A stretch of DNA of 64,000 bases from a virus (IMGVR_UViG_3300034101_006325:32001-96000), one strand, 5' to 3'. Shown: positions 1-31,515, counted from the stretch's first letter. Made by a program: numbers and translations. Notes: generated by a model from the letters alone, not told the origin.

Positions 1-602
1 CAGTCATCAATAATTCCATTATAATAATGAATTTCTCGAGGATCATCGCACACAGCAAAATCGCTGTAATCGGGGTCAAGAACCAACTCAAAGTTAATTT
101 GTGTTTCCGACGACGACAAACCTTTTAGGACATTTACTAAAGATTGACCAACCTCTCGAGGACTAGAATTTTCGTACTCTTCAAGTTTACTCTTTACAAG
201 ATCAGTCAAGTCGTCCAAATTTAGCGCATCCCGTACAACTAACACATTAGGAGAATTTTGCAAGACATCAACTTCATTATTAAAGATATCATAAAGTCTG
301 GACAGGGATGTTGCGTCTTGGGCTTCGTCACCTCGTGAATTAAATCTTCGAAGAATCTCTTCCTTTGGAGGCAAAAGAACCACGACAAAGTTATTCAAAT
401 TGCTGACTTCTTTGGTCAAAGAAATACGATGATGTGACTCATCCCTACCGTAAAGCTTGGCGTAACACAGCATTGATAGACAAGATCTATCCTGAATATT
501 GTATTTAAAACCAGTCGAACGGTGTAAAGAAGAATAAAGTGAAGTTTTGCCGCTTAGATCAGAACCCTCAAGAATCAAGTAATTGACAGGAAGACTCATC
601 AT
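1..602 (-). CDS. dNMP/thymidylate-kinase-like P-loop kinase (3'-partial, runs off window start; absent from the ORF track)
   Basis: Manual translation from ATG 602 (overlaps the dnaE stop): MMSLPVNYLILEGSDLSGKTSLY...NIQDRSCLSMLCYAKLYGR...LLPPKEEILRRFNSRGDE; Tmk-type (I/L)EGxDxSGKT P-loop and DRxxxS motif; frame open to position 1. Confidence 0.8.
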   Translation of the reverse strand, partial: MMSLPVNYLILEGSDLSGKTSLYSSLHRSTGFKYNIQDRSCLSMLCYAKLYGRDESHHRISLTKEVSNLNNFVVVLLPPKEEILRRFNSRGDEAQDATSLSRLYDIFNNEVDVLQNSPNVLVVRDALNLDDLTDLVKSKLEEYENSSPREVGQSLVNVLKGLSSSETQINFELVLDPDYSDFAVCDDPREIHYYNGIIDD

Positions 603-3600
603 GCCACCTTTCTCAGCTTAAAAATTGATGTTGAAAATCCCCAACTAGGATCGTTCGATGCTTGACCTACCCAAAGTGTATAAGGATCAATAGATTCCGT
701 TGGATTACCCCAGATTCTAATCCAGCCTTGACGTGAATCATTGTCAATAGCCTTGCACCGATAGAATGCCTTTCCATTCTTTGTCTTTTTAAGGTTGACT
801 TCAGTCACGAGAAACCAACCTATACCGTCAGAACCAGGCTGTACATCGTGCAATGATTGGACACCTTTTTCAAGGAGTTTTTTCATAATGTCGGGAGGAA
901 ACAATAGATCGACGTCTGCTGTGGAAGTAAGATCATATGCCATGCTGATCTTTTCATCTCGCGTCCAATCTACAGTACTGGCTTGCTCCTCCAGCAACAC
1001 GTCAATTACTGGCAGCGGATCGATTCCTTCTTTTGCAAGCTTTTTTAGCTGAGCTGCAGTTAAACCATAGATTCCTTTTCGCAAGGTTTCATAATTTTTA
1101 TCTTCAGTCAAAGCCAACAATAATTGTCTGTGGTGTCTTACAGACCCTCCTTGAAAATCTTCAAGTGATTCCAGAGCTTCAATCTTGCAAAGTGCTGAAA
1201 GTGCAGTCTTATTGACCTTGCTGTGACGCCAATTTCCTTCTGCATCATAAAGCATTTCTTTGAGATTTTTGTAAGGTCTATTCTCCATAATTTCGTCGAC
1301 TGCAGTTGAACCAATACCCTTGGCTGAAGTAATAGGAGGAACAAATGCATCGGCTTTTTCAGAAAACTGCCATTCTTTACCTGAATAATTGATATCAATC
1401 TTGGAAAATTTGTATCCTAAAGACTTAATTTCACCAATTACCTTTGTCAGCTCTTTGGGATTTGAATTTGCCGACTGAAGAATCGTGGCAAGCCAGTCCT
1501 TCTCATAGTGAGTGTGGAGCCAGGCAGCATAGTAAGAGTCGATCGCATATGCGACGGAGTGTGACTTGTTGAAGCCATAGAGGGAGAAGAACTCGATCTT
1601 GTCGAACAGGGCATTGGTGATGTCCTCCGAGATTCCGTGGATCTCCTTTGCGCCCTTCACGAACTTCTCGCGGAGCATCGCCTTCTCGCCGCCCTTCTTG
1701 TCGAGGGTGTCGAGAGACTTCTTGACGAGAGTCTTGCGCATCTGATCTGACTCGCCAGGATTGAAGCCTGCAAGCTCAACGGCCAGGGACATGAACTGCT
1801 CCTGGAAAGTGATGAACCCGCGAGTCGGTCCGAGGACCTTCTCGATCAGCGGATGGTCGTATTTAATCTTGGTCAGGTCCTTGCCGGCGTCGACGTACAT
1901 GTTGTGGACGTTCGCTTTGAGGGGGCCAGGGCGATAGATCGCCGTGATTGCTGACAGGTCTTCGATGCAGTTTGGTTGAGACTGCATGCAGAACTTTCGA
2001 GCTCCCTGAGCAGTGAACTGAAACACTCCGACGAATCGTCCCTCATGGTAGACATGTTTCCAAACCTCGGGGTCGTCCTGCTTCACGTAGCGACAGTTGA
2101 GGTGCTTGTCGAAGAACGCCTTCACGTTGAGGAAGGTGGGATCAGGGTTTCCCTGGTTGACGAGGATCCGACGGATGCAGTTCTCCACGTCCTTGAGGAG
2201 CGTGAGTCCGAGGAAGTCGAACTTGAGGAAGCCGTTGTCCTCCAGGTTGCGGAAGTTCATGCCTTCCGTCCACGGGGTCTGCAGTTCGCCTCGGACGCCG
2301 ATGATGGGCATCGTGGCTGCAAGGTCGTCCGGATCTGCCACGATGACGCCGCCGGCGTGTCGACCGACGGATCGGTTCTGCATAAAGAGCGTCTCGACGT
2401 GTGCCGCGACGTCTGGGTACTTCTCCATGAATGCCTTGTACTTCGGAGAGTACTTCATGCAGTCCTCGTGCTTCAGGACGAAGACGGACTTCTCCTGATC
2501 GTCGTCGCGGGCGAGCGGCATCACCTCGTCCTGAAGCGGACCCGTCATCTCGTTCACCTCCTCGAAGGGCACGCCGTAGATCTTGGCGATGTCCTTGACG
2601 AGGGACTTGAGCTTCAAGGTGTTGAAGTTCGACACCGGGATCACAGCGTCGTCGCCGAACAGCTCGCGTGCCGAGTCGATCAGGGCATCGCGGTCGCCTG
2701 CGTCGGAGTCGATGTCGGGCCACGACACGCGATGGCGGCCTAGGAAACGGCTCCACAGGAGACCGTAAGGCAGGGGATCGATCTGAGTGATGCCGAGGAG
2801 GTAGTTGACGAGTGAACCTGCGCCTGAACCACGGCCGGGGCCGAACAGGGTCCGAGTCTCCGCCTTCTTGAAGATCTTGTACATCGTCACGAAGTAGGAA
2901 GCGTGACCGAGGTACTTGATGTCGGACAGCTCCTCCTTCACGCGGGCGACGTATTCTGGTTTGTCAGACAGGCCTTCACGAATCAGGGCCTCCTTGACGA
3001 GCTCAGTGAGCTGCTGGAATGTTGTCTTGCCTGGCATGTCCAGCTTCGGTAGCTTTGCTTTAACATCGACCCATGTATCCTCACAATGTTGCCATGCGAT
3101 ATCATGGGTCCTCTCGATGGCGTCTCGGACCTCCTCCTCGGAGCCTCGATAGAACTCGTACTGCTCGTAGGACTTCTTGTACTCGTCCCACATCTGGGAT
3201 GCATTCTTCGGATACAGCTCGCACTTAAGATCTTCGAACTTTGGAAGTGCCTGTTCGTCGAGCTTAGCACCCATCCATCCAAGCTTCTTGTAGAGCTCAC
3301 GGGCCTGCCACTTCGACGGGTCGGGATAGTGGGAATCGCAGGTGGCGAGCAGCTTGACGCCGGACTTTCGAGACAGGTCGATGAGGTACCTGTTGACCGT
3401 GTGCTGCTTCGGCAGCTTGTTGAACTGGATCTCGAGGAAGAAGTTCTCGGTCCCCACCGCATCCGTGAACCTGTCCGTGAGGTTCATCAGCTCGGAGATG
3501 ATCTGCTCCGAGTTCTTGCCGTAGGCCTCGCCGCGGAGGATCGTGCCGCTGTAGATTCCACCAAGGCAGGCCGTGGACCACACGATCCCCTTGCCGTACT

Positions 3601-4215
3601 TCCGGAGGAGGTCGAAGTCGATGCGTGGATAGCGGTAGAAACCGTCCTTGAACGACGCCTTCACGAGGCGATTGATGTTCGCGAGACCTTCGGCGGTCTG
3701 CGCCACCGCCACGAGGTGGTAGCGACGCTGCCAGTCGGGCTTCTCCTTGTAGTCGTCTGCCTTCGTCTCGTTCTCGTCCTCGACGACGTGTCCGCCGGCC
3801 TCTTCCTCCTCCACCTCGTCAGCGTCGACGTCGGTCCGGACCTTCGCCTTCTTCTCGGCCTCCGCAGCGGTCTTCGCGTCCTTGATCGCCTGCTTGTGTG
3901 CCTCGTAGTCGATCTTCCACTGTGTCAGCGAAGGAACGAAGTAGAACTCCACACCGTAGAGCTGCCGGTACTTCACGCCCTTCTTCTGCAGCTTCTTTGC
4001 TGCGGAATGAGCGTGTGCGAGGCCGTTGCCGTTGCCGTGGTCGGTCAGGGCCCACGCGTCCATCCCCTGTGATTCGGAGACAATCCACTTTATATGATCC
4101 TCGGGATAGCCAAGTCCGTCAAAAGTTGAGAAACCCGAAAAGCCGCCCCTGAACAAGCCAGGGGCGGCACCTACGAATGCGCGTGGAAACCGACGAATTT
4201 CTTCGGCGGCGTCAC
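599..4215 (-). CDS. dnaE: DNA polymerase III alpha subunit (family C, DnaE-type) with PHP domain; N-terminus discontinuous (see 4136-4176)
   Basis: Motifs TDHG, GVEFY, STACLGG, TCDSHY, GPGRGSGAGSLV, PDIDSD, GRHAGGV, KFDFLGL, YGFNKSHSVAY. Track ORF starts at TTG 4156 and lacks the first PHP motif, which is encoded upstream as GTG4215-MTPPKKFVGFHAHS after an AAGGAG RBS. Confidence 0.95.
4136..4176 (-). other. candidate translational-bypass (coding gap) element in dnaE
   Basis: TCG(4176-4174)-TAG-GT-GCCGCCCCTG-GCTTGTT-CAGGGGCGGC-TTT-TCG(4138-4136); skipping 38 nt restores HAHS-GFSTFDG. Confidence 0.75.
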
Positions 4216-4254
4216 ATCGCGCATCTCCTTAAAAGTGTTAGATGACATGATAAC

Positions 4255-4283
4255 AATCTAACACGCGAAATCTGTCGTTTACA
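4255..4283 (-). promoter_or_regulatory. sigma70-like promoter of dnaE
   Basis: TGTAAA-N17-TAGATT on minus strand; near-identical TGTAAA-N16-TAGACT upstream of the epimerase. Confidence 0.5.
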
Positions 4284-4304
4284 CACGGGAAGCAAATGCA
4301 GTTC

Positions 4305-4330
4305 GAGGCGAAACCCGAAGGAATCGCCTC
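4305..4330 (-). terminator. stable hairpin with cUUCGg tetraloop after the 83-aa gene
   Basis: GAGGCGA-TT-CC-TTCG-GG-TT-TCGCCTC on minus strand; no clear U-tract. Confidence 0.5.
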
Positions 4331-4355
4331 AATTGCGTTTCTTTGAGGCTCTTTC

Positions 4356-4607
4356 TCAGATGTCCGTGACGGTGCCGTCTTCGTCGAGCTTGAGACCGAC
4401 ATCAAAGAGCTGCTGATCAGTGATCGCGCCTGGATACACCGCGAGTGCAGACTCGAGATCCTCAATAGAGACATAGCCTCCCTCCAAGTAGATCTCATCG
4501 AATGCGTCACGGAGCTCGAGGTTGCTTACGGATTCACGTGTCTCTCGGATTACTTTTCGTGCTTCTTCCTTGATGATGGAACGCAACTGCTTTACTGTGA
4601 TCTTCAT
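4356..4607 (-). CDS. small protein with MKITxxQLxxIIKEE leader (putative head/internal protein)
   Basis: MKITVKQLRSIIKEE N-terminus shared with other ORFs; AAGGAG RBS; ATAATTA upstream. Confidence 0.7.
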   Translation of the reverse strand: MKITVKQLRSIIKEEARKVIRETRESVSNLELRDAFDEIYLEGGYVSIEDLESALAVYPGAITDQQLFDVGLKLDEDGTVTDI

Positions 4608-4643
4608 GTCTGACGCGTCTCCTTGCTTACGTAGCGCTACTGT

Positions 4644-5648
4644 CTAATTATTAGGACATTTTGGAAAGTGCTGCAAGAGGTCAAACTTATGCTCGGCCGC
4701 CTCGTCGAGGTACTTTAGCGGATTATAGTCGGAAGAATTGCGGATCCATTCCAGCGTCCGCTGAATACCGTCGAGCAAATCAAGTGTTGGTTTCCAACCA
4801 AGCTTTTCTCGAATTTTTCTGGATGACAACCGGTGGTTTCCGAGATAGTCTGTTGTCGGGTGCCACCTCACGAGATCAGATGCCGATGCACCGACAACAT
4901 CGTCTATAATCTTCATCACTTCTCCTGCAGGCACTGGTGTCTCCGCGGAGACGTTCCAGTCTGTCCCCCAACCGGGCCCGGAGACGTCGCGGCATACTAG
5001 CTCAACAGCCCTGCAAAAATCCTCCACATGGAGGTAGTCCTTTACCTTCGTCGGATCCAGAAACATATCCACGGATTTCTTTCCGTTGAGGTAAGCATAA
5101 ATCGACTTCGCGATGAGCGAATTCATATCACCGAGGCCACCAAACGCGAATAGCGGTCGAACGATAGTCCACCTATCTGCCATTGCTGTGACAATCTGTT
5201 CTGCGGCGAGCTTCTGGACGCCATAATAAGTCCGAGGAATCTTTGTTGAATTTTCTACAATCTGTTCGTCTTGATAACTCTTCGTATCATAGATGACAGT
5301 TGTTCCTAGATAGCAAACTGCAGCCTTTGCTCGATTGGCAGCACGAACAATGTTGTATGTGCCTTGGACGTTGGATAGTGTCGCCTCTGCAGGATCAAGG
5401 GCAACCACGTCTGTTCCGACCACAGCAGCATTGTGAACGACGACGTCGACATCATTGTCGTAAAGCGCTTTATGCCAAGTTTCCTCCGAATTCCTGTGGA
5501 TGCATGCCTCCCCGGTGCGTGGAAACTTGACGTAATCTATTCCCTCGAACAGATCCTTGTCGGTCACGACTTCCTGTGAAAGAGATTCTAGAACGACCTT
5601 GAGATTACGAGCGATCAGGCCCTGTGGTCCGGTGATATAGTACTTCAT
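4644..5648 (-). CDS. NAD-dependent NDP-sugar epimerase/dehydratase (extended SDR)
   Basis: ITGPQGLIA Rossmann motif, VVHNAA, YYGVQK (YxxxK), IVRP, DYLHVEDF, WKPTLDLLDGI. Confidence 0.9.
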   Translation of the reverse strand: MKYYITGPQGLIARNLKVVLESLSQEVVTDKDLFEGIDYVKFPRTGEACIHRNSEETWHKALYDNDVDVVVHNAAVVGTDVVALDPAEATLSNVQGTYNIVRAANRAKAAVCYLGTTVIYDTKSYQDEQIVENSTKIPRTYYGVQKLAAEQIVTAMADRWTIVRPLFAFGGLGDMNSLIAKSIYAYLNGKKSVDMFLDPTKVKDYLHVEDFCRAVELVCRDVSGPGWGTDWNVSAETPVPAGEVMKIIDDVVGASASDLVRWHPTTDYLGNHRLSSRKIREKLGWKPTLDLLDGIQRTLEWIRNSSDYNPLKYLDEAAEHKFDLLQHFPKCPNN

Positions 5649-5657
5649 CGTTGTCTC

Positions 5658-5685
5658 AGTCTAAAACAAAATATCAGACTTTACA
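5658..5685 (-). promoter_or_regulatory. sigma70-like promoter of the epimerase
   Basis: TGTAAA-N16-TAGACT, 9 nt before the ATG. Confidence 0.45.
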
Positions 5686-5734
5686 CGTCGACAATATAAT
5701 GACGCAATATTTCTGAGCCTTCCATGCTAAATAC

Positions 5735-5759
5735 AAAAAAGGAAGCATTGCTGCTTCCT
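5735..5759 (-). terminator. Rho-independent terminator after the NDT gene
   Basis: AGGAAGCA-GCAA-TGCTTCCT followed by a T-tract on minus strand. Confidence 0.8.
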
Positions 5760-5784
5760 CTCATTGTTTAATTGGCGATATTGT

Positions 5785-6258
5785 TCACTCAATTTCCTTG
5801 TCGTAAGGCTCATACAACAGCTCACCAGCAGTCTTACAGCGCTCGAGGTAATCCTCCAACTGATCAAATGATGTGCAGACCTTGATGCCGCTGCGACTGA
5901 GCATCAAATTAAACTTTGCACCAGAAGGGAGATTTTCGCAGAAATAAACGATCTTGGTGCCGTATGCATATGATGCACCGGCCTCCCAGATGGTACCAAT
6001 GTCGCGGTATGTCGTGTTGACGAGGCAGAAATCAGCCTTCTTGATGTGATCAACATTGCCCTTGAACACATTGTCCTGTACCTCCTGCGTTGCATCTGGT
6101 GGACAGACGAAGATTCGACGGGGGGACGCAAGGTTTATCCAGGCAGAGCGATCGTCAAAGACCTTTTCCAACTTTGTGAGTTGCTTGTCCTGATCTGGAG
6201 AAAACCAACCTGATGCCAAATATACGTGAAGCTTACGACCAAAATTATTAGCGCTCAT
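5785..6258 (-). CDS. nucleoside 2-deoxyribosyltransferase / nucleotide N-glycosidase (NDT/Rcl/MilB superfamily)
   Basis: VYLASGWFS, HIKKADF, DIGTIWEAG (catalytic Glu motif). Confidence 0.85.
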   Translation of the reverse strand: MSANNFGRKLHVYLASGWFSPDQDKQLTKLEKVFDDRSAWINLASPRRIFVCPPDATQEVQDNVFKGNVDHIKKADFCLVNTTYRDIGTIWEAGASYAYGTKIVYFCENLPSGAKFNLMLSRSGIKVCTSFDQLEDYLERCKTAGELLYEPYDKEIE

Positions 6259-6267
6259 ATGTTCCTT

Positions 6268-6849
6268 TCAAAAATTAGTATGATAGTTTATATTCAAATA
6301 CTGGGCGTCGAGAGCAACATCGCTGACAAGAGATTTTGGTCCTGCGACGAAGACTTCCGTGCTGCTCTGACCATTGTACAGGTAGCGGAGAAGTTGTTTA
6401 GGGCGTGAGCAATTTTTTGTGTTTACAAAATAAGCTCGTGCAAATTGTGGATAAAAATTGCTGAGGGCTAGAGGATCAAGTCCACGCGAACAGATGCCGA
6501 TCATAGGATTTATTCCTCTGCTGAAGAGTTGATTGATCAAAAGTGCGACTGCTCCAACGCCAGTGCCACCAGCAATCACGATGGCTGATGAAGATGATGC
6601 TGTTGGAAAACCTTTGCCGGAAGGAAATTCAACCTTGTCGATCTCCTCGCGAAAGAGGAAGGAGCTAGATTTGACGATGAATGTCAGCGTGGAATCGGTA
6701 AAATCGGCGATCGCAACCCACCTGCCGTTGACGACTGCACAGGATCCTGGAATAATGTGCTGTGTTAGCCCAGGATGGGTCAGGACGACTTTCTGATAAT
6801 CTCCACCAAGGTTTGTATTCTCGATTATTTGAAAATTATCCTGACCCAT
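6268..6849 (-). CDS. ferredoxin-NADP reductase-like FAD/NAD(P)-binding protein (PyrK-like)
   Basis: FPSGKGF, IVIAGGTGVGAV, VFVAGP motifs; lacks a C-terminal Fe-S domain. Confidence 0.65.
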   Translation of the reverse strand: MGQDNFQIIENTNLGGDYQKVVLTHPGLTQHIIPGSCAVVNGRWVAIADFTDSTLTFIVKSSSFLFREEIDKVEFPSGKGFPTASSSSAIVIAGGTGVGAVALLINQLFSRGINPMIGICSRGLDPLALSNFYPQFARAYFVNTKNCSRPKQLLRYLYNGQSSTEVFVAGPKSLVSDVALDAQYLNINYHTNF

Positions 6850-6856
6850 TGCCGTG

Positions 6857-7840
6857 TCACTTTCCGTTCTTCCAGTCGTCGTGGCGCGACTTTAGTGTGG
6901 ACCAGTCGGTCATGTCCTTGTTCCACAGCTCAGTAAAGCGTTTTTGTTGACCGGAGCCATGGGTGCCATTCAGTTCCTCACGCGTTGATTGGTAGATCGT
7001 ATCATTTGGATGAAACTCAAAGATATCGTTCTTCTTGATCGGCCAATAGAGATTGGTTCCCCTCGACACAAACTTGTCGCCTTCCTTGACCCTGAAGGTC
7101 TTGACATAGTGCATGTCAGGCTTGTTGAAGTCGATGACAGAAGTAAATTCTGGCATCACCTTGGCGACTTCCACTGCCATTCGAGAGGCGAGGAGATTGT
7201 CGGCGGCAGGCTGAATCTGTGTGTCCATGCGTTGGTAGATGAATCCAATCAGATCCTTTAGTGATAGACGCATGTAATAGAACGAAGTCATGCACTTTGG
7301 CAGGATCATCCTCGCATCCATCATTGATACGACCTTGGAATCTGTCATGTCGGCGTAGAGCTGCTTTGATTCCTCAACAAGCTTAGTCCATCGTGCGAGA
7401 AACTCGGGTGAGTTCTGGACGGGCTCCGGGATTACAGCATCGTCGTCGCGGAGGTCGCGGTCTCCAGTGCACTGTGCTGCGAAAGTGCCAGCGCGGTGGC
7501 GGATGATGTGTGTCACCTCCTGGAAGGAGAGACCGCTGAGGCGGAACGTGAAGCCGAGACACTCCATCGGTGCAGGAAGAGTACGTCCTCCGAACACGTC
7601 CTCGAGGTTCTTGGAAAGTTCACGCTCAGTTACACCTCGTGTAGGATCAATATCCGGGCGATCGGCCCATGTGGCCTTGACATAGTGCCATGCAACATTC
7701 CAGGCCTGTTGTCGCGTGGGGTGGTCGACGAGTTCCACCTTGAGTGCGTCGAGGTTGTTGTGGAATTGTGTCTTTGGCTTGCGGCCAAACTTGAGTTCCA
7801 TGGGAAGATCTACGGGCTGAAGGTCACGATTAATAGGCAT
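6857..7840 (-). CDS. divergent ThyX-family flavoprotein
   Basis: ECLGFTFRLSGLS, HIIRHRAGTFAAQCTGDR (altered RHRx7S signature), DARMILP. Confidence 0.8.
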   Translation of the reverse strand: MPINRDLQPVDLPMELKFGRKPKTQFHNNLDALKVELVDHPTRQQAWNVAWHYVKATWADRPDIDPTRGVTERELSKNLEDVFGGRTLPAPMECLGFTFRLSGLSFQEVTHIIRHRAGTFAAQCTGDRDLRDDDAVIPEPVQNSPEFLARWTKLVEESKQLYADMTDSKVVSMMDARMILPKCMTSFYYMRLSLKDLIGFIYQRMDTQIQPAADNLLASRMAVEVAKVMPEFTSVIDFNKPDMHYVKTFRVKEGDKFVSRGTNLYWPIKKNDIFEFHPNDTIYQSTREELNGTHGSGQQKRFTELWNKDMTDWSTLKSRHDDWKNGK

Positions 7841-7862
7841 TTGTTACTCCTTGAGATTGTGT

Positions 7863-7891
7863 ATTATACGCGCTAATTTGAAACATTTCAC
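7863..7891 (-). promoter_or_regulatory. sigma70-like promoter of the ThyX-like gene
   Basis: GTGAAA-N17-TATAAT, then AAGGAG RBS. Confidence 0.55.
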
Positions 7892-8850
7892 TGCAAAGAT
7901 TCAAGTATGATATTTGCGGCATCGAAGGGATCCGAGCCTTCCGAGACGTAGGTTATATTCTTGAGAGAAGACACCTCTGTGTTGTATGTCTTCTGGGGTA
8001 CGACAACTTGGACACCATGCTTTGCATATTCTGCAGAATGTTTGGCCGAGTCGTCAACGGCAAAAAACTTTCCCGTCGAATAGAATTTTTGGTCCGCCAC
8101 CCAAGCAAATTTTTCAGGTGCAAAAGTTATTGCATCTGCAGGTATGTTGTGCCTGTAGAGCCACGAGTATGTGTCGTAGAAACATGTAAGATTTTTTTCA
8201 GGTCGTGCCGTGATTATCTGGATCCAGCAGCCTTTGTCTTTCAGTTTCCTCAGCGTCTCACAATATCGATGATTGGGATGAAGCCCCAAAAAACCATGCT
8301 TGTCAATAAAAGTTCTAAAATAATACTCATTGCTCAAGCCGTGCTTTTTAAACGTCGTAACGTTATAATATTCGGGACAATGAGGATCGATGAAAATTCC
8401 GCTATCTTTTGTGACAAACTCGCAGAAAGACGATCTAAACTCCGCCAAGACATCGTCCATGTCGAAAAGAACAACAGGCTCACCATTCCACTTTCTTTGT
8501 GAGAGCGTGTGTCTATAGTGCAGAAATTCATCCTTCTGCTTCAAGGCGTTCACAAATTGATCACCATCAATTGAGCACAAATTTAAAATTGCAAGAATAT
8601 AACGATATGCATCTACAGATTTATAGAGGACTTTTTGAGAGTCAATTGAATCGGGCAGAAGCCGATGATTCTTGTAATTTGCGCCTTCGACGATCCCCGT
8701 CGCTTCAGAATGTAAAGACAAAACAAAGGTCTTGAGCAATTCCTGCTTCTGACTCAGGGTGAGCTGTTTTTCATCAAAAAACAGAGATGAAAAATCTGCT
8801 TGACGCGACAAGGCATCAAGCAGATTTCCCCAATCAATTTGTGAATTCAT
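7888..8850 (-). CDS. degenerate MazG-like domain fused to HAD-family 5'(3')-deoxyribonucleotidase
   Basis: C-terminal VLFDMDDVLAEF (DxD), IITARP, FAVDDS; N-terminal helical domain resembling the adjacent MazG-like ORF. Confidence 0.75.
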   Translation of the reverse strand: MNSQIDWGNLLDALSRQADFSSLFFDEKQLTLSQKQELLKTFVLSLHSEATGIVEGANYKNHRLLPDSIDSQKVLYKSVDAYRYILAILNLCSIDGDQFVNALKQKDEFLHYRHTLSQRKWNGEPVVLFDMDDVLAEFRSSFCEFVTKDSGIFIDPHCPEYYNVTTFKKHGLSNEYYFRTFIDKHGFLGLHPNHRYCETLRKLKDKGCWIQIITARPEKNLTCFYDTYSWLYRHNIPADAITFAPEKFAWVADQKFYSTGKFFAVDDSAKHSAEYAKHGVQVVVPQKTYNTEVSSLKNITYVSEGSDPFDAANIILESLQ

Positions 8851-8866
8851 GTATGCATTCTATGTC

Positions 8867-9232
8867 TTAATAGCCTGATTTTACACGCCGGACATTTACT
8901 TCGCCTTTTTTCATGAAGGCTTCGTACAATTCTTCCACAGATATTCCACTATAAATGACGATGCCAAAGAAATAATGCAGGGCATCCACAAGCTCTTCTT
9001 TGTAAGATTCACGATCAAAATCTTTGACCTCAGTTACTCGATGTGCTTTGCTGTTCTTTAGAAGATGATTTGCTTCAAAAAGTTCATGCATGCATTCATG
9101 TGCAAGACCTTTGAGCATTTGTTGATTTTTCTTTTCTCTAAGGTCAAGAGGAAAGTCTGGCATTTGACGTTCATCTCGCAAGAGTACATTGAAGTCTCTT
9201 TGCTGATTGTACATTTTTTCTAGCTTGTCCAT
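8867..9232 (-). CDS. MazG-like / dimeric dNTP pyrophosphatase
   Basis: HECMHELFEA...EELVDALHY acidic metal-binding pattern; start placed at MDKLEK (RBS AAGGA). Confidence 0.8.
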   Translation of the reverse strand: MDKLEKMYNQQRDFNVLLRDERQMPDFPLDLREKKNQQMLKGLAHECMHELFEANHLLKNSKAHRVTEVKDFDRESYKEELVDALHYFFGIVIYSGISVEELYEAFMKKGEVNVRRVKSGY

Positions 9233-9246
9233 TGTTGTTTCCTTAA

Positions 9247-10251
9247 TCACAGAACTTGAGCTGCAATTAAACAGCCTCTAGCAACAGCATGCAGAGGATC
9301 GGCAGCATGTCGAACTTCCTTGACTGGCAGTGGGAAATTGTTCTCCTTTAACTTTGAAGCAAACATTTCGACAAAACCTTTGGCCTTTGAGGTGCCTCCG
9401 GCGACGACGACGGGTAGAGCATCTTTAAATTTTGGCAATGATTTGTGGCCATCCATTGCGGCTGCAAGCTGCTTCGTAGTATAATCGATGAGACGTTCAT
9501 AATAGGCAGCAACTGCAGCAAGGACTTGATTGTCATTAGGTTGACCGACGGTGAAATCGCCTGATTCTTTCTCAGCTTGGACAATTGAATCAGCCTCACC
9601 CGTGGCGACTGCAGACATGCGATCTACCCAGTCACCGCTCTTAGTAGTTGAAAACTTGACTACAGGCTCACCATTGAGCATAACACAAACATTGACCATG
9701 CCAGCTCCCCACGAGAGACAAACACCCGTATAGTCATCCTTATCAAGTTCGGAATAACAAAGAGCCTCTGCCTCATTTATTGCTCTTGCAGAATAGCCTA
9801 CTTCAGTTAGAAGTTTAACGATGACGTCTTCATGATACCCAACATCGAAATCATCATCTTCTTGATCGATCGGTTGTGCTGGGACACAGAACACAAGTTT
9901 TTCTCCTTCTTCGCTTGGTTTTCCAGCAACTTCTTTAAGGATAAAAGTCAAAATTTTTCTCGCATCTTTTTCTTTGGACGAGACGACGCCACGGTACATT
10001 GGTCTCTTTGCGGAGTCATTTCTCTCCACAGCTTTTTCAATTGCATCGGCACCGAGCAGAATAAATGAACCATCAGAGTCTTTAACAAATGTTTTTCCTG
10101 TAAGACCTTTTTCGATCATCTTTGTAGCAATTGGTGTGGTTGGCTTGATAACATAAAAAGCATCCCTAAAATCTTTATAGTTGACCTTTCCTTTGTTTCC
10201 TTCCGAAGCTAGAACAATGAATGATGTACCTACGTCTAAACCCTTAGCCAT
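9247..10251 (-). CDS. actin-family ATPase (volactin-like)
   Basis: GLDVGT (phosphate 1), INEAEA (connect 1), SWGAGMVNV (phosphate 2), VVAGGTS (adenosine), HAVARG (connect 2). Confidence 0.9.
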   Translation of the reverse strand: MAKGLDVGTSFIVLASEGNKGKVNYKDFRDAFYVIKPTTPIATKMIEKGLTGKTFVKDSDGSFILLGADAIEKAVERNDSAKRPMYRGVVSSKEKDARKILTFILKEVAGKPSEEGEKLVFCVPAQPIDQEDDDFDVGYHEDVIVKLLTEVGYSARAINEAEALCYSELDKDDYTGVCLSWGAGMVNVCVMLNGEPVVKFSTTKSGDWVDRMSAVATGEADSIVQAEKESGDFTVGQPNDNQVLAAVAAYYERLIDYTTKQLAAAMDGHKSLPKFKDALPVVVAGGTSKAKGFVEMFASKLKENNFPLPVKEVRHAADPLHAVARGCLIAAQVL

Positions 10252-23696: not shown

Positions 23697-24281
23697 TTAA
23701 ATTATGCCAAAAACTTTTAAAGAATTAAGCAAATCTCGCGAGACTTCTTCGATGGTTTGATTGCAATTAATCACTTGAGATTTATCAATGTTTTGATCTG
23801 CCCATTCTTTATAGATTTTTCTCACACTTAATTGCAATTTTTGATCAGACTCATAAACATCTTCAGCAATATGAGCATGAGATTGACCCAATAAAATAAT
23901 TGTGCAATCTGGGACCTTTAATCTATCATATAATTTTTTTGTGAATTCTTGAGAAACACCAGAAGCTTCTCCGTATACAACGGTTGATAGACTCCAGCGG
24001 TCCATTATAATAAAGTCATAAGACTTTTCAAGACGAGGTAGAACTGTCCACTGAAATATTTGTCTATTGAAGTATTGAAACCACTGAAATAATCTGGGGA
24101 ATTTCTTGGCTAGGCCATTCCCTAACATCCAATAGATGACTCCATGAATTATATTGGATTTAATTGGCACTTCGACGACTACAGCTTTTTTACCCGTGAG
24201 CTTTAAGTAATCACACAAAATATTGCTCTGCGTCGCCTTGCCGCAGCGATCAGGCCCTTCAATTACAAGAAATTTGCTCAT
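23697..24281 (-). CDS. tmk: thymidylate kinase
   Basis: VIEGPDRCGKATQ, IIMDRWSLSTVVY. Confidence 0.9.
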   Translation of the reverse strand: MSKFLVIEGPDRCGKATQSNILCDYLKLTGKKAVVVEVPIKSNIIHGVIYWMLGNGLAKKFPRLFQWFQYFNRQIFQWTVLPRLEKSYDFIIMDRWSLSTVVYGEASGVSQEFTKKLYDRLKVPDCTIILLGQSHAHIAEDVYESDQKLQLSVRKIYKEWADQNIDKSQVINCNQTIEEVSRDLLNSLKVFGII

Positions 24282-24937
24282 TCAAATGGTCCTCTAATTA
24301 CACCATTTATTGTTAATCCAAAAGCAGCTAAAGTATCATCAAATTTTCCTGTTTCTTTCACGAGATCCAACATTTGTCGAGCAATTTCTCTAATCTCCAG
24401 CTGCGCATGCTCTGAGTAACGTAGATGAAGAAAGTGATAAAAGCTTCTAAAATTAAACATGACATCTGCAGTAATTTGATTTCCATAAGGCAAATAAAAT
24501 CTTGCAGACTCTTTGGCACGTTTTCTTGGAACACCTTTTTTAACCAGCCTGTTTAAAGCTTCATGGTATTCTTTTAAAGAATTTTCCATGTGAGTAATGT
24601 AATTGAGACGTTCCTCTTCATCCCAATCTACTGGCGTGTAATATTTGTCGTCTTTGAGTTCTTTGTACCTTGCTGACTCCGCATTGATTGATACGCCTAC
24701 TCTGTGTTTCAATAGATGCACGTGTGACGCAATATCTGTTGTTACCAAAAAATGAAGACTTGACTTTTCAAAAACAGAATGATGTTCATTTTCAGCCAAC
24801 ATCTTAAGAAGCTGAGGAATTCTATTCCTCTTTTCTTCGTTTAATTCTCGAGAAGTTGAAGTCCACGCAGAAAGTGCGTGTGTTTCATCAGACCCATAAG
24901 TTCCAATTAATTCTACCCTATTTTGACTAGAAGGCAT
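24278..24937 (-). CDS. thyX: FAD-dependent thymidylate synthase
   Basis: EHHSVFE, KHRVGVSINAESARY, ESARFYLP, FNFRSFYHFLHLR, HAQLEIR. Confidence 0.92.
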   Translation of the reverse strand: MPSSQNRVELIGTYGSDETHALSAWTSTSRELNEEKRNRIPQLLKMLAENEHHSVFEKSSLHFLVTTDIASHVHLLKHRVGVSINAESARYKELKDDKYYTPVDWDEEERLNYITHMENSLKEYHEALNRLVKKGVPRKRAKESARFYLPYGNQITADVMFNFRSFYHFLHLRYSEHAQLEIREIARQMLDLVKETGKFDDTLAAFGLTINGVIRGPFE

Positions 24938-25276: not shown

Positions 25277-27868
25277 TCAGCATTTTGACCAACCACAAGA
25301 AGAACATGTGACGCATCCTTCTTTGTAAACAAGCGCATCTGATGAACATTGCGTGCATGTTTTGTCTGATGAAGTTGCCTTGACTCCATCAGGAATGTAG
25401 CTCTTCAATACTCTAGCTAGAACCCTAGAGAAAGACTGCATGTCGCTGTGTTTGTCTTTCTGCAGCTGTTCAACAACATATTGAACAGGTACACCGTGTC
25501 GAAGAGCTAGCGAAAGTGATCTGGTGAATGCTCCGTGATTTGGATTGGCGAATAGTTCAACAATATCCTTAAACATTAACGAATCGTCGTCCCCTACAGG
25601 AATTTGCAAATTGTAAGTTGCAACTCCATCCTTCTTACCATTCTTGATAAGATTTCCAACCTTCGCCTTCTTCGGTACTTCAACATGATGCGATAATCCA
25701 CAGAAGATCTCGTATGGCTTGCCTTCAAGCCTGCCGACCAACACCAGGTATGATTCCTGACCTTCAGAACCTTTTACATTAATTCTGTGAATGTCGCACG
25801 GTAATTCTTTCGGACGTTTTGGCGCATGATTCTCTATCATGGTTTCCGGTTGACCGTCAGTTTCAACCTTCTTCGCTTCTTTCGGCGTATCCTGCACGAG
25901 CACACCGGTTCGACATCCATCTCGATAAACTGTAAAACCTTTGCAACCTGCTTCCCATGCTGCCATGTAAACATCAGCAACGACTTCACGTGTTACTTCG
26001 TTAGGAAGATTGCATGTCTTTGAGATGGCGTGACATACCCACTGTTGGGCAGCAGCTTGAAGCTTAACTGACATGGGCCAATCAACATCGTTGCTTGTTG
26101 CCTTCCAATAAGGCGATTCAGCAATTTGCTCGTCTGACTTTCCTGTAGCATCCATCCACTTCTTAAAGCCGTGGTGATAAACTTTATACTCCTGCCACTT
26201 ATCACCAAGCTGATCAATGAAATCTACCCTTGCAGTTGTGTCTGTTGGATTGATCTTCTTTCGTCTTGTGTAAGACAAGAGATACGCAGGTTCGATGCCG
26301 CTTGTTGTTTGAGTAAGACATGAAACGGAGCCGGCCGGCGCAGTTGTCGTCAGCGCAATATTTCGCCTGCCATATTTTGACCAGTCTGCATGCAGATCTT
26401 TGTCGACATTCATGATCCTTTTGAGGAACTCACTATTGTTTTCAAGCTTCCAGTCATAAACAGGGAAAGCACCTCGATCCTTTGCCATGTCGACAGATGA
26501 ACGGTACGCAGATAGCGCAAGTGCTCTATAAATTTCTTCTGTTTTATCTACTGATTGTTGCGTGCCGTACACAACACCAATTGCTGCCAATGCATCACCA
26601 ATTCCTGTGATTCCGAGACCAGTTCGTCGAGCGCCGCTGGCAGCTTTTTTAATTTTCTTCCAAAGCTCAATTTCTGGTCTTTTAACAGCATCTGACTCTG
26701 GGTCTTCTTCGATCTTATTTAAGATGGCATCGACAGCCTCGATCTCAAGATCAACAAGATCGTCCATCAACTTTTGTGCCTTCGCAGAAACCTTCTTGAA
26801 CTTTTCAAAGTCAAACGACGCTGTAGGAAGGTAAGAATCCTTGACAAACTTTGTGAGATTAATCAGGAGAAGACGACAGGAGTCGTACGGGCTAAGGATC
26901 AATTCAGCGCATGGATTTGTAGAAACATTAGCGTATCCCTTTGAAGCATAGGCTTCTGTTGGAGTCATCTTCTTTACTGTATCCCAGAATAGAAGACCTG
27001 GTTCTGCAGAAGTCCATGCAGCATCAATGACTTGATTCCAGAGCTCGCGAGCCCGTACAACTTTTGTAACCTTTGCTTCTTCAACGGATGATTCAACTGG
27101 CCATCGAAGAGTGAATTCTTTGTCATCCTTCACAGCGTTCATAAATTCATCAGTGAGTCTAATGGAAATGTTGGCTCCTGTGACCTTCTTTAAATCTCGC
27201 TTGATGTTGATGAAGGTTTCAACTTCAGGATGCATCACAGAGATTGTGAGCATTAGCGCACCACGACGACCACCTTGAGCAACCTCACGGCATGTGTTGG
27301 AGAATCGTTCCATGAAAACACCGATGCCGTCAGTTGTTCCGGCTGCATTAGCAGTGGCAAGACCCTTTGGGCGAATTGTTGAGACGTCGAATCCAACACC
27401 GCCGCGGCGCTTCATAATTTGAGCCTGCTCCTGATCAGTGAAGAGGATTCCACCGTAAGAGTCCTGGGGAGAATCAATAACAAAACAATTCGATAACGAT
27501 TGGAGTTTATATGGATTTCCCATGGCTGACATCGGAGAACCCTGTGGAACAACAGCACCAATTCCACGTGATTCGGCAGCCAATTGCTCCAAAGTCATCG
27601 TTGACTTCTTTGTTACGTCCAAATGATCAGTGTCTGCAAGAAGACAAAAGATCTCTTTTTCAGATAACGGATTGGGATACTTGGCTTCGATACGAGCAAA
27701 CTCACGAGTAAGACGAAGGTGCATATCAGTCGGCGTCTTCTCAAGAACTTGACCCTTTGCATCTCTCAATGCATATTTGTCGACAAAAACTGATGCTGCC
27801 AATTCATCACCTCCAAAGTAGGACAATGATGCTTCATATGCTTCGGCTCTTGTATACGTCTTGCTCAT
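25277..27868 (-). CDS. nrdJ: class II (B12-dependent) ribonucleotide reductase
   Basis: LSNCFV, RGGVGFD, TNPCAEL, TTAPAGS, AISKTCNLP, TVYRDG, C-terminal CxxC...CxxC; no small subunit nearby. Confidence 0.92.
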   Translation of the reverse strand: MSKTYTRAEAYEASLSYFGGDELAASVFVDKYALRDAKGQVLEKTPTDMHLRLTREFARIEAKYPNPLSEKEIFCLLADTDHLDVTKKSTMTLEQLAAESRGIGAVVPQGSPMSAMGNPYKLQSLSNCFVIDSPQDSYGGILFTDQEQAQIMKRRGGVGFDVSTIRPKGLATANAAGTTDGIGVFMERFSNTCREVAQGGRRGALMLTISVMHPEVETFINIKRDLKKVTGANISIRLTDEFMNAVKDDKEFTLRWPVESSVEEAKVTKVVRARELWNQVIDAAWTSAEPGLLFWDTVKKMTPTEAYASKGYANVSTNPCAELILSPYDSCRLLLINLTKFVKDSYLPTASFDFEKFKKVSAKAQKLMDDLVDLEIEAVDAILNKIEEDPESDAVKRPEIELWKKIKKAASGARRTGLGITGIGDALAAIGVVYGTQQSVDKTEEIYRALALSAYRSSVDMAKDRGAFPVYDWKLENNSEFLKRIMNVDKDLHADWSKYGRRNIALTTTAPAGSVSCLTQTTSGIEPAYLLSYTRRKKINPTDTTARVDFIDQLGDKWQEYKVYHHGFKKWMDATGKSDEQIAESPYWKATSNDVDWPMSVKLQAAAQQWVCHAISKTCNLPNEVTREVVADVYMAAWEAGCKGFTVYRDGCRTGVLVQDTPKEAKKVETDGQPETMIENHAPKRPKELPCDIHRINVKGSEGQESYLVLVGRLEGKPYEIFCGLSHHVEVPKKAKVGNLIKNGKKDGVATYNLQIPVGDDDSLMFKDIVELFANPNHGAFTRSLSLALRHGVPVQYVVEQLQKDKHSDMQSFSRVLARVLKSYIPDGVKATSSDKTCTQCSSDALVYKEGCVTCSSCGWSKC

Positions 27869-30383: not shown

Positions 30384-31091
30384 ATGAGTCAAACGCTGCT
30401 GCGTGAATATCTTGATCTGATGCTTGAAAAAATTCGATCAAAAAAGAAAGTAAAGACAAAATTTGGAAAACCAAATTTTGATCTTGAAGAATTTAAATCT
30501 CTACCGAATGAAGCAATCATGAGAGCGTATGCGATGAATTATTTGGATCCCTTAGGACAAGGAAGCTCAAGAATTGCATTCGTTTTATCTGGCAATAGAC
30601 AGAAAGTGTTGAAGATAGCTCTCAATGAAAAAGGTCTTGCACAAAATAAAGCTGAACTAGAGGTATATACAGACCCTGCTACTGCCGACATGGCGGCAAA
30701 AATATACGATACAGACGAGAACAATCGTTGGGTAATCGCTGATATCGTCAGACCTCTAACGAACCCAATGGAATTTAAAAAGTTAACGGGAACGGATTGG
30801 GATCAATTTGTGCAAGACATGATGTCGTCTGTTTCTCAGGCTGCAAGAAGAAGAGATATGAAGTTAAGGGATGACGCGCCTGAATTTACAAAAAAGGTCT
30901 ATAGAATGGCTGAAAAAGGAAGCAATAAACTTCGTCAAGGCGACTTGACAGTTTTAGACCATTGGGGTAAAACAGCGGATGGCAGGGTCGTAATACTTGA
31001 TTATGGCTTCACAGTAGATGTTGGAGAAAAATACTACGACAAAAAGCCACAAAAAGTCGCGGTTCAAGACGATATTCCTACTGGCCGGTAG
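30384..31091 (+). CDS. protein-kinase-like fold enzyme
   Basis: LGQGSSRIAF, VLKIA, NKAE, GDL...HWG, VILDYG; ATAATTA 6 nt before the ATG. Confidence 0.75.
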   Translation: MSQTLLREYLDLMLEKIRSKKKVKTKFGKPNFDLEEFKSLPNEAIMRAYAMNYLDPLGQGSSRIAFVLSGNRQKVLKIALNEKGLAQNKAELEVYTDPATADMAAKIYDTDENNRWVIADIVRPLTNPMEFKKLTGTDWDQFVQDMMSSVSQAARRRDMKLRDDAPEFTKKVYRMAEKGSNKLRQGDLTVLDHWGKTADGRVVILDYGFTVDVGEKYYDKKPQKVAVQDDIPTGR

Positions 31092-31515
31092 AGCCAAAGC
31101 CTCCTGAGCCTCTGTCGGTCTTGGTTAAGCTCTCTGTCACCTGGAATATCCCACGAAAAACTCTTGAAAATATCATCTGAGCAATCCTATCGCCTTTATT
31201 GACAATAAATTCCTCGTCACCTGTATTCAACAGAATGACCTTGATTTCTCCTCTAAAATCTTCATCAACTGTTCCCGGTGTGTTCAGTACTGTGATGCCA
31301 TACTTGGCAGCCAGACCGGACCTAGGACGAACCTGTGCCTCAAAACCTGGTGGCAGTTCGATCTTTAAACCTGTCGACACCATTGCACGGCGACCAGGTC
31401 TAATGATCAAATTTTCATTTGCGTAAAGATCACAACCGGCTGATCCTTGTGTTTGATACTTTGGAACAAGACTGTTGTCATCTACCTCACAACGAATCCA
31501 AAATATATCACTCAT
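31078..31515 (-). CDS. dut: trimeric dUTPase
   Basis: SAGCDL, QVRPRSGLA, GTVDEDFRGEI, RIAQ, RGSGGFGSTG. Confidence 0.95.
   Translation of the reverse strand: MSDIFWIRCEVDDNSLVPKYQTQGSAGCDLYANENLIIRPGRRAMVSTGLKIELPPGFEAQVRPRSGLAAKYGITVLNTPGTVDEDFRGEIKVILLNTGDEEFIVNKGDRIAQMIFSRVFRGIFQVTESLTKTDRGSGGFGSTGQ

Follow-up and report, generated by a model that had tools for sequence, protein, structure and literature searches.

A polymerase-linked phage gene module with a rewired ThyX-fold protein and a kinase-fused ThyA-fold domain: a candidate pathway to a C5-modified pyrimidine

Described phage pathways to modified pyrimidines

In Bacillus phages SPO1, phi-e and SP8, replacement by hmdU involves: a dUMP hydroxymethylase of the ThyA fold; a dTTPase-dUTPase; a dCMP deaminase; and a kinase, with thymine excluded. 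The locus analyzed here, from a giant uncultured phage, likewise combines an NTP pyrophosphatase, a dNMP-directed hydrolase, a thymidylate synthase (TS)-like enzyme, a kinase and a dCMP deaminase, and its ThyX-like protein keeps the uracil-contacting arginine. It differs from the hmdU type in that the source genome retains a canonical ThyX and Tmk and employs a ThyX-fold protein.

The cytosine pathway of the T4/RB69 type uses gp56 dCTPase, a ThyA-fold dCMP hydroxymethylase or 5-hydroxy-dCMP synthase, a nucleotide kinase and DNA glycosyltransferases (PMC13326640). RB69, DLP3 and RL38J1 have clusters proven to make 5-hydroxy-dC, and in these a YorR/Tmk-like kinase adjoins the ThyA homolog and a MazG-type dCTPase is also encoded (PMC13326640, Table 1). 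Shared with the present locus are the MazG-type pyrophosphatase, a ThyA-fold protein with Cys146, R166-S167 and Asp177, the YorR/Tmk-like kinase beside the ThyA homolog (fused here), and sugar-nucleotide enzymes nearby. However, the ThyA-fold unit here spans only ~155 aa and appears to be without the folate lobe, the source cluster contains no DNA glycosyltransferase, and the most conserved members, a rewired ThyX-fold protein and a nucleoside 2'-deoxyribosyltransferase-family protein (NDT), are absent from T4 and RB69.

A ThyX-fold route to a modified base, which the first-pass annotation had offered as new, has a precedent: gp130, the second Thy1 protein of Bacillus phage SP-15, has been hypothesized as a putative hydroxymethyluridylate synthase (PMC5977210). 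SP-15 is a large phage with hypermodified thymine and, as here, a canonical Thy1/ThyX-fold protein alongside a divergent second one. As it is not among the tblastn matches to the ThyX-like family at E<=1e-3, it is not a close relative. What appears to be new here, judging from the structural models, is the ThyA-fold domain fused to a kinase. The known thymidine hypermodification clusters with a 5-hmdU DNA kinase use a ThyA-fold dUMP hydroxymethylase (PMC8989533). One family member resembles these: in the MAG L096, the gene immediately after the ThyX-like one encodes a homolog of this kinase (PF18723, 48 bits), and no ThyA homolog was found; the source genome has no such kinase homolog.

A gene module beside the replicative polymerase

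The window is the whole 64,000-nucleotide stretch of DNA that was analyzed. Every gene that had been named in a same-strand cluster around DnaE was found on the minus strand in its assigned place, and the ordinary dTTP pathway is, as had been described, encoded separately at 23.7-31.5 kb:

8867..9250, minus strand: MazG-like all-alpha NTP pyrophosphohydrolase, 127 aa (Pfam dUTPase_2, PHROG 12184)
7888..8850, minus strand: MazG-like N-terminal domain fused to an NT5C-type HAD phosphatase, 320 aa (Pfam NT5C)
6857..7840, minus strand: rewired ThyX-fold flavoprotein P0001, 327 aa (Pfam Thy1, AF2, Foldseek)
6268..6849, minus strand: 193-aa ORF, possibly an FNR/PyrK-like flavin reductase (language-model features)
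5785..6258, minus strand: NDT, 157 aa (PF05014)
4644..5648, minus strand: SDR NDP-sugar epimerase/dehydratase-like protein, 334 aa (Pfam Epimerase)
599..4224, minus strand: dnaE, Pol III alpha-type replicase (Pfam PHP, DNA_pol3_alpha, finger, HHH_6)
1..602, minus strand: kinase and mini-ThyA fusion P0281, first 200 of 303 codons (AF2, VIA, Foldseek)
23697..24281, minus strand: canonical thymidylate kinase Tmk, outside the module (PF02223, E=1.5e-14)
24278..24937, minus strand: canonical ThyX P0002, 219 aa, outside the module (Thy1, E=2e-37; TIGR02170)
25277..27868: class II RNR, ordinary pathway
31078..31515: dUTPase, ordinary pathway

The true start of dnaE is ATG 4224, versus 599-4156 as called; a 38-nt gap with a stop and a hairpin (4136-4173) separates the first 17 codons from the remainder, and the two parts are colinear with uninterrupted relatives. 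The dnaE stop overlaps the kinase ATG as ATGA, in agreement with the earlier call of a second dNMP kinase overlapping dnaE at 1-602. The kinase gene continues 309 nt past the left edge of the window, and its full product, read from the 200,303-bp record, has 303 aa. Beyond position 1, where the first-pass annotation had suggested looking for a glycosyltransferase or a ThyA-like domain, the latter was found on the kinase C-terminus; the genes further downstream encode a second SDR sugar enzyme, a thymidine kinase and a dCMP deaminase.

The gene order MazG, MazG-HAD, ThyX-like, NDT, epimerase, DnaE, kinase is shared by 80 IMG/VR relatives, with ThyX-like identities of 54-91%. Gene presence was counted over 85 related loci: NDT adjoins the ThyX-like gene in 80, the MazG-like gene lies just upstream of it in 73, and the MazG-HAD gene occurs in 58. 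The core, consisting of the ThyX-like protein, NDT, a small kinase and a dNMP/dNTP hydrolase, recurs in unrelated phages, with NDT next to the ThyX-like gene in every assessable context. There it adjoins PolA in L005, PolB in L004, and DnaE in Geobacillus phage GR1, L003 and L091-L094, and gene ends mostly overlap. The co-occurrence in relatives that the first-pass annotation had proposed as a check is thus present, which supports the view that the cluster genes form a conserved, non-random module. GR1, the only cultured phage with the family, is described as possibly temperate, and neither a non-canonical base nor unusual behaviour of its DNA has been reported (PMC10237291).

The 193-aa ORF lies outside this module. 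It has no match in Pfam even at E<=1 and none in PHROG or NCBIfam; language-model features place it near PyrK/NAD_binding_1 clusters, at a score (0.92, with 158-162 features in common) that falls short of what the tool counts as reliable. It is found in none of the 85 related loci, where the same position is taken by DUF7487/endonuclease or methyltransferase genes. The ORF is therefore an accessory insert and, being missing from all these loci, cannot be the core flavin recycler once envisaged.

The module would remodel the pyrimidine deoxynucleotide pool before replication and most likely feed the adjacent DnaE at least one C5-modified pyrimidine, a reading to which we assign a probability of about 0.5. 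If it is true, an unusual DNA pyrimidine would most likely be made by a gene set common to many unrelated phages.

Two thymidylate synthase-like folds

The ThyX-like protein P0001 matches Pfam Thy1 (E=1.5e-17, 64.5 bits), and its AF2 model (pLDDT 95.7) aligns with solved ThyX and PolB chains at prob 1.0 and TMt 0.62-0.79, with 15-19% identity for those at TMt 0.7-0.79 (Foldseek); as modelled, it is a true ThyX fold. With ThyX of T. maritima (TM0449) and M. tuberculosis and with the UMP/dUMP methylase PolB, it shares the fold, the R-x-R flavin/nucleotide motif, and equivalents of Tm R147 and R174. It differs from canonical ThyX in carrying ~100 additional residues, in a gene that adjoins NDT rather than Tmk, and in scoring below the TIGR02170 thyX equivalog cut-off (34.6 bits versus 87.9). 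Four further members score 29-50 bits, so that 5/5 tested fail, whereas the canonical ThyX of the same genome clears the cut-off at 105.5 bits.

In the ThyX motif RHRx7SxRY, R114-H-R116 is kept and the S-x-R-Y loop (S88, R90 and Y91 in canonical ThyX) becomes C124-x-G126-D127. Among 61 ThyX-like members, the rewritten loop has Cys in 44, Gly in 44 and Asp in 46. R177 and R204 are retained, and R204, the uracil-O4 arginine, is present in 60 of the 61. The copy is divergent, as first proposed, and coexists with canonical ThyX in complete relatives, including one of 284 kb that is 100% complete. From these features, the protein would act on a uracil nucleotide and install a non-methyl C5 group, with 5-hydroxymethyl-dUMP as the best guess for the product.

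P0281 joins a YorR/Tmk-like nucleotide kinase (residues 1-146) to a minimal ThyA-fold domain (residues 147-303). In the AF2 model (pLDDT 95.5), residues 7-155 match YorR (2axp) with Z 14.2 and residues 147-303 match ThyA 3ix6 with Z 10.3 over 142 aligned residues; VIA also matches the mini-ThyA domain to 9iqc (Z 10.3) and MilA (5jnh, Z 9.2). The top Foldseek matches of this domain are a dCMP hydroxylase of phage HY126 (AfhB, 9iqu) and the T4 dCMP hydroxymethylase (dCH, 1b5d). A profile alignment to T4 dCH (E=0.0037) places C84, R104-S105, D115 and H147 on C148, R168-S169, D179 and H216, and the catalytic Cys, the Arg-Ser and the Asp at the N177 position are invariant across 24 mini-ThyA sequences. 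Asp at this position is an established marker of dCMP-specific ThyA homologs (PMC13326640; PMC8670742); as aligned, the dCMP signature is present in the mini-ThyA domain. This replaces the purely ThyX-based pathway of the first-pass annotation. The domain is about half of a full ThyA, with ~64 residues fewer before the Cys (position 84 versus 148 in T4 dCH), and Pfam PF00303 gives no match to it. Roughly 90 residues of the folate-binding lobe, the region of E58, W80, W83 and Y94 in E. coli ThyA, appear to be missing, so the domain may serve for binding and not for catalysis.

In GR1, L003, L091 and L093, the mini-ThyA gene lies directly 3' of the ThyX-like gene, and in GR1 it shares one base with the ThyX-like stop. 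One possibility, which we consider distinctly improbable, would be a two-component enzyme acting on cytosine only. Here, the mini-ThyA would be the sole catalyst, its Cys activating C5 of dCMP; the ThyX-like protein would substitute for the apparently missing folate lobe as an NADPH-driven flavin reductase or flavin-bound one-carbon donor; and NDT and the phosphatases would supply only dCMP. Consistent with this proposal are the adjacent gene pair, the closest solved fold being the flavin-dependent AfhB, and the genes nearby (a nitroreductase-type flavin reductase beside the pair in GR1, the FNR-like ORF in the source genome). ThyA-fold 5-hydroxy-dCMP synthases require flavin, and D169N is the signature of these enzymes (RB69 gp48/HY126 AfhB type; PMC13326640). 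Position 169 is D, E or N in orthologs, with N in several (GR1-like L003, L091, L012 and L030, and P0288). In the source genome, however, it is Asp (R-S-T-D), not Asn, and the domain therefore lacks the synthase signature. Furthermore, no mini-ThyA is detectable in the retrieved DNA of L004, L005, L095 and L096, despite a ThyX-like protein, NDT and kinase in each, and the ThyX-like family retains nucleotide-binding arginines that would be superfluous for a mere reductase.

Nucleotide flow through the module

NDT belongs to PF05014 (E=1.1e-11, 45.4 bits versus a cut-off of 28.8). Its best solved relative is the N-deoxyribosyltransferase 6evs (E=1.1e-12), and the alignment retains the YLASxF..Q, DxGTxWE and NLM motifs and the catalytic Glu. 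This relationship and the kept Glu suggest a transferase type rather than a DNPH1-type N-glycosidase; of the earlier label, the NDT family stands, whereas a glycosidase activity is less likely.

The transferase assignment bears on whether the product stays out of DNA altogether. The module would then make a modified base, nucleoside or nucleotide that remains free and inhibits the host or its defences or serves as a decoy for them, much as ThyA/ThyX-like enzymes work with NDT-family hydrolases in nucleoside-antibiotic pathways. The ThyA-like MilA, among the matches to the mini-ThyA fold, works with the NDT-family hydrolase MilB. The ThyX paralog PolB, which methylates UMP for polyoxin, is among the top fold matches of the ThyX-like protein (PDB 4p5a/4p5b; PMC5954106). 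A free product of this kind is nevertheless very unlikely: the NDT appears to be a transferase, the module lies constantly beside a replicative polymerase of whatever family, and fusion of the kinase to NDT or mini-ThyA points to nucleotide activation for polymerization.

The MazG-like protein scores 28.1 bits against Pfam dUTPase_2 (cut-off 22.9) and falls in PHROG 12184, an NTP pyrophosphohydrolase family. In the MazG-HAD fusion, NT5C matches residues 125-253 (E=6.6e-8) with the DMDDV motif intact, and the N-terminal half is homologous to the MazG-like protein at L092:8960-9313; in unrelated phages an HD/YfbR-like nucleotidase occupies this slot. The analysis shows which genes and fusions are present, which folds and altered motifs they carry and how widely they are conserved; from this we infer all substrates, products and DNA incorporation. 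The pathway to a C5-modified pyrimidine would involve: cleavage of canonical dNTPs to dNMPs by the MazG-like enzymes; removal of the phosphate by the HAD domain (elsewhere the HD/YfbR-type enzyme), yielding deoxynucleosides; base exchange on the freed deoxyribose by NDT; renewed phosphorylation by the YorR-like kinase; C5 addition to the uracil nucleotide by the ThyX-fold flavoprotein; and modification of dCMP at C5 by the mini-ThyA, which would pass its product to its own kinase. A sugar-phosphate phosphatase is a possible alternative role for the HAD domain.

The two SDR sugar enzymes, with glycosyltransferases elsewhere in the genome, may then decorate the hydroxyl. The epimerase (Pfam Epimerase, E=2.4e-27; under every NCBIfam equivalog cut-off) occurs in 58 of the 85 related loci and is conserved only inside the jumbo-phage clade.

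NDT, nucleotidase, kinase, thymidine kinase and dCMP deaminase would also fit a plain salvage pathway. Pool balancing of this kind would turn host dNMPs into nucleotides for an AT-rich phage and yield no modified base; the ThyX-like protein would be a second TS (e.g., of other timing, cofactor or oxygen tolerance), and the mini-ThyA a nucleotide-binding regulatory domain. All parts come from general nucleotide-metabolism families, and the ThyX-like protein is the only TS homolog in GR1. YorR, the nearest solved relative of the kinase, derives from the B. subtilis prophage SPbeta, which is not known to have modified DNA. Salvage is unlikely, however, when both ThyX types are kept together across the whole clade, the loop that binds the dUMP phosphate is rewritten, and the mini-ThyA keeps its Cys, Arg-Ser and dCMP-type Asp invariant; members that adjoin a homolog of the 5-hmdU DNA kinase or are fused to a glycosyltransferase also stand against it.

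Against a C5-modified pyrimidine, besides the salvage reading, are the full dTMP pathway kept in the genome, by which thymine is not simply excluded, the shortened mini-ThyA with its Asp169, the unremarkable DNA described for GR1, and the absence of a 5-hmdU DNA kinase homolog from the genome and its jumbo relatives. Of the modified-base pathway as first outlined, the FNR recycler and the ThyX-only route have fallen away, while the conserved module, the rewired ThyX, and the glycosyltransferase fusion and 5-hmdU DNA kinase neighbour seen elsewhere speak for it. In favour of the C5-modified pyrimidine, fusions tie the parts of the module together: kinase-miniThyA in the source clade and L092, kinase-NDT in L091 and L093, and glycosyltransferase-ThyX-like in P0155.

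Gene content and conservation of the module

The module at the left end of the window is real, widespread and functionally coherent. An open-reading-frame listing together with Pfam and PHROG scans upheld the gene list of the first-pass annotation, all on the minus strand.

Genes of the module and a downstream neighbour
8867-9250, minus: MazG-like
7888-8850, minus: MazG with NT5C-type HAD
6857-7840, minus: ThyX-like
6268-6849, minus: 193-aa ORF (FNR-like)
5785-6258, minus: NDT
4644-5648, minus: SDR epimerase/dehydratase
599-4156, minus: DnaE, ORF as listed
L001:14706-15419 (record 28706-29419), minus: Fe/Mn superoxide dismutase-like gene, 237 aa (Sod_Fe_C, E=4e-20)

The kinase ATG and the dnaE stop overlap as ATGA, and the kinase extends past window position 1 to a total of 303 aa. 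Downstream of it lie a second SDR sugar enzyme (TviC and GalE, its nearest NCBIfam models, both score under the cut-off), a thymidine kinase, a dCMP deaminase and the superoxide dismutase-like protein. The last of these lies a few genes past the cluster and could be relevant should flavin-oxygen chemistry play a part. Megablast found no match to the cluster among deposited phages, and single-sequence searches of the PDB gave nothing useful for MazG or MazG-HAD.

Conservation was counted over 85 loci: 80 IMG/VR contigs of the same broad clade (ThyX-like identity 54-91%), obtained by a locus search with a 10-sequence alignment, plus five metagenomic contigs of more distant phages. The expectation that the cluster would co-occur across related phages held, with the order MazG, MazG-HAD, ThyX-like, NDT, epimerase, DnaE, kinase-miniThyA, second epimerase, thymidine kinase and dCMP deaminase kept in the 80 clade contigs. 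NDT is present in 80 of the 85 loci, MazG in 73, and MazG-HAD and the epimerase in 58 each; the 10-kb flanks restrict the counts for both DnaE (44/85) and the kinase (20/85). None of the 85 has the 193-aa FNR-like ORF, whose variable slot is filled in relatives by DUF7487/endonuclease-like or methyltransferase genes, and the proposal that this protein recycles flavin as a core function was therefore rejected. Nor is a reading of the NDT-family gene as a DNPH1-type N-glycosidase favoured, as its motifs and best solved relative point to a transferase.

The core of the module also extends beyond the clade. Geobacillus phage GR1 (OK896991; host G. stearothermophilus ATCC 10149), a cultured carrier, and L003 have it beside a DnaE replicase. 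A PolA phage (L005) encodes NDT, an HD nucleotidase, a 141-aa kinase and the ThyX-like protein, and a PolB phage (L004) encodes NDT, a kinase and a glycosyltransferase-ThyX-like fusion. Six contigs from MAG bins (Clostridia, Ruminococcus, Bacteroidales, Bacillales and two archaeal) likewise carry the core, in the order NDT, HD and ThyX-like followed by mini-ThyA or kinase; neighbouring genes often overlap at their ends. Wherever the context is long enough for a judgement, NDT and the ThyX-like gene lie at most 5 kb apart, mostly 2 kb or less.

The two thymidylate synthase-like proteins

The ThyX-like protein is modelled with a ThyX fold (pLDDT 95.7) and ~100 extra residues. Its fold matches solved ThyX and PolB chains at 15-19% identity only, and single-sequence PDB searches with it returned nothing useful. 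Against the thyX equivalog model (cut-off 87.9 bits) it scores 34.6 bits and four other family members 29-50 bits, versus 105.5 bits for the canonical copy of the same genome. Profile alignment to M. tuberculosis ThyX indicates that the R-x-R motif is retained, as are two later arginines, R177 and R204, the latter equivalent to the uracil-contacting R174 in T. maritima; the substrate loop S-x-R-Y is replaced by C-x-G-D-x-D, with C124 and D127 as its Cys and first Asp.

The ThyX-like proteins form a small, distinct family of 360 clusters at 50% identity, in which most members are ~300 aa and align end to end. Metagenomes are rich in it (991 close proteins), and its carriers include gut phages, thermophile phages and jumbo phages of marine origin. 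Yet it occurs in just one of 50,697 deposited phage genomes, that of GR1, so that a common DNA chemistry could be going unseen. Our literature search found no experimental study of this family and no characterised ThyX-type phage modification enzyme. The precedents found were a second Thy1 protein of phage SP-15, already proposed as a hydroxymethyluridylate synthase (PMC5977210), and PolB, a ThyX paralog showing that the ThyX fold can change substrate (PMC5954106).

Reading the kinase beyond position 1 revealed a fusion out of reach of the first-pass annotation: its C-terminus is a ThyA-like domain, at residues 147-303 of the 303-aa protein (model pLDDT 95.5). The N-terminal part is a YorR/Tmk-like kinase domain (2axp, Z 14.2, residues 7-155). 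The C-terminal domain, here termed mini-ThyA, resembles thymidylate synthases (3ix6, Z 10.3), the flavin-dependent dCMP monooxygenase 9iqc (Z 10.3) and MilA (Z 9.2), and its best Foldseek matches are the dCMP hydroxylase AfhB of phage HY126 and T4 dCMP hydroxymethylase. A profile of 24 mini-ThyA domains aligns to the T4 enzyme (E=0.0037); Cys (C84 of the domain), Arg-Ser, Asp (D115) and His, all of them invariant, pair with T4 C148, R168-S169, D179 and H216. An Asp at this site, N177 in E. coli ThyA, is an established marker of dCMP-specific homologs (PMC13326640; PMC8670742). At position 169 mini-ThyA has Asp rather than Asn (D, E or N among orthologs), so the domain lacks the published 5-hydroxy-dCMP synthase signature.

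The domain is ~90 residues shorter than T4 dCMP hydroxymethylase, mostly before the Cys, in what corresponds to the folate-binding region of ThyA, and mini-ThyA is for this reason regarded as a putative catalyst only. That the truncated core may not be catalytic counts against modification. No full ThyA was found in this genome with PF00303, which gave only a 12.6-bit chance match. In L005, a 145-aa gene following the ThyX-like gene was considered as a mini-ThyA and rejected, as it does not match the mini-ThyA profile; by eye, its alignment row looks MazG-like.

A two-component arrangement, in which the ThyX-like protein serves mini-ThyA, is quite unlikely. Complex prediction for the two gave no answer (score 0.00, without controls) and weighs neither way. 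A hybrid thymidylate synthase-like system of both proteins or, alternatively, modification of one pyrimidine by each enzyme may be entertained as a speculative scheme of low probability. In the hybrid version, the flavoprotein would supply either reduced flavin or a one-carbon unit bound to flavin, while the Cys-activated pyrimidine would come from the ThyA core without a folate lobe. In the two-pyrimidine version, phage DNA would bear C5-hydroxyl-type groups at C as well as T positions, and NDT would recycle the deoxyribose of the excluded canonical nucleotides.

Functional links and the probable product

Gene fusions tie the would-be new enzymes to kinase, NDT and glycosyltransferase. Single proteins joining a Tmk-like P-loop kinase to a nucleoside deoxyribosyltransferase domain (L091:6482-7489 and L093:6516-7487) are encoded directly upstream of the HD nucleotidase, ThyX-like and ~190-aa mini-ThyA genes. 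The kinase-miniThyA fusion is found in this genome and in L092. In the PolB-type phage, P0155 (L004:7726-9381) joins a GT-A (family 2-like) glycosyltransferase to a ThyX-like domain, and the GR1 cluster includes a glycosyltransferase and a nitroreductase-type flavoprotein. A phage contig from a Bacillales MAG carries, immediately after the ThyX-like gene and overlapping its end, a gene with the 5-hmdU DNA kinase (5-HMUDK) helical domain (L096:8785-9732; PF18723, 48 bits, cut-off 25). A search of that whole MAG revealed no ThyA homolog, and the present genome has no 5-hmdU DNA kinase.

5-HMUDK and glycosyltransferases share a type of target in DNA, a C5 group that bears a hydroxyl. Given these links and the retained uracil-contacting Arg, the best guess for the product of the ThyX-like enzyme is of the 5-hydroxymethyl-dUMP type. 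A module product that stays out of DNA altogether is very improbable. GR1 speaks against modification in that this phage may be temperate and its DNA is not reported to be unusual; the GR1 literature yielded no DNA-modification data.

The kinase-miniThyA fusion mirrors the arrangement in the proven 5-hydroxy-dC clusters of RB69, DLP3 and RL38J1, where a YorR/Tmk-like kinase stands beside a ThyA homolog and a MazG-type dCTPase is also present (PMC13326640, Table 1). We infer that the output of the module is one or two C5-modified pyrimidine nucleotides made for DNA, each thymidylate synthase-like protein acting on its own substrate (probability about one half).

The ordinary dTTP pathway is separately encoded, as the first-pass annotation had stated.

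Ordinary nucleotide genes
23697-24281: Tmk
24278-24937: canonical ThyX
25277-27868: class II RNR
31078-31515: dUTPase

The presence of this complete canonical dTMP pathway counts against modification. Plain salvage is a rather unlikely role for the module.

The phage routes to modified pyrimidines that are known so far begin with ThyA-fold enzymes of full length. If the C5-modification reading is correct, the module would add two enzyme types: a ThyX fold with a rewritten substrate loop, and a ~155-aa ThyA core. Enzymes of this kind serve as tools for DNA labelling and sequencing, and they account for the ability of phage DNA to resist restriction and CRISPR. As GR1 is in culture, the question is open to a direct test.

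The dnaE 5' end and the surrounding record

The dnaE gene starts at ATG 4224 on the minus strand, with a Shine-Dalgarno sequence AAGGAG at 4230-4225, and its first 17 codons encode MRDVTPPKKFVGFHAHS. There follow TCG (4176-4174), a TAG stop, a perfect 10-bp G+C hairpin (4168-4159 / 4151-4142), TTT and a second TCG (4138-4136), after which GFSTFDGLGYP is encoded in another frame. Joining at the two TCG codons across this 38-nt gap (site within window 4118-4230, minus strand) makes dnaE colinear with 19 uninterrupted relatives; the PHP-domain HxH is encoded upstream of the gap. At the same Ser codon, two relatives have interruptions of their own: a 10-nt insert with TAA (L009) and a 9-nt insert with TAG (L079, TCC...TCT). 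The gap fits a candidate gene-60-like programmed translational bypass. The closest relative, with a ThyX-like identity of 91%, has a split dnaE whose first part ends in a weak Hint-domain match (L008:14297-16063, E=0.0094), which suggests an intein or split gene where dnaE here is continuous.

The 200,303-bp record, of which the window covers bases 32001-96000, is linear by IMG/VR class, with 39.5% G+C and a CheckV completeness estimate of 61%; as a relative of 100% completeness measures 284 kb, it is a fragment of a jumbo phage. Adjoining the module is a gene for an actin-like protein (9247-10251, minus) that matches Volactin (PF25216, E=7.6e-66) along its entire length; this family takes its name from a haloarchaeal actin. 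This adjacency is not kept in relatives; an ALP_N actin-like gene lies a few kb from the module in GR1 and L003. A GMP reductase/IMP dehydrogenase-family gene (11250-12320, minus; PF00478, E=2.6e-94) stays under every NCBIfam equivalog cut-off; it gives the phage nucleotide metabolism an enzyme for purine interconversion. Between the module and the canonical dTMP genes also lie an HNH endonuclease (14740-15456), a metallophosphoesterase (15290-16120), an LD-carboxypeptidase (16117-17100) and an N6/N4 DNA methyltransferase (17383-18147). Genome composition is strongly heterogeneous: G+C reaches 58.8% in mid-dnaE (window 2001-4000), versus 39-44% in much of the genome, and is also near 50% in the structural-gene region at 32-56 kb.
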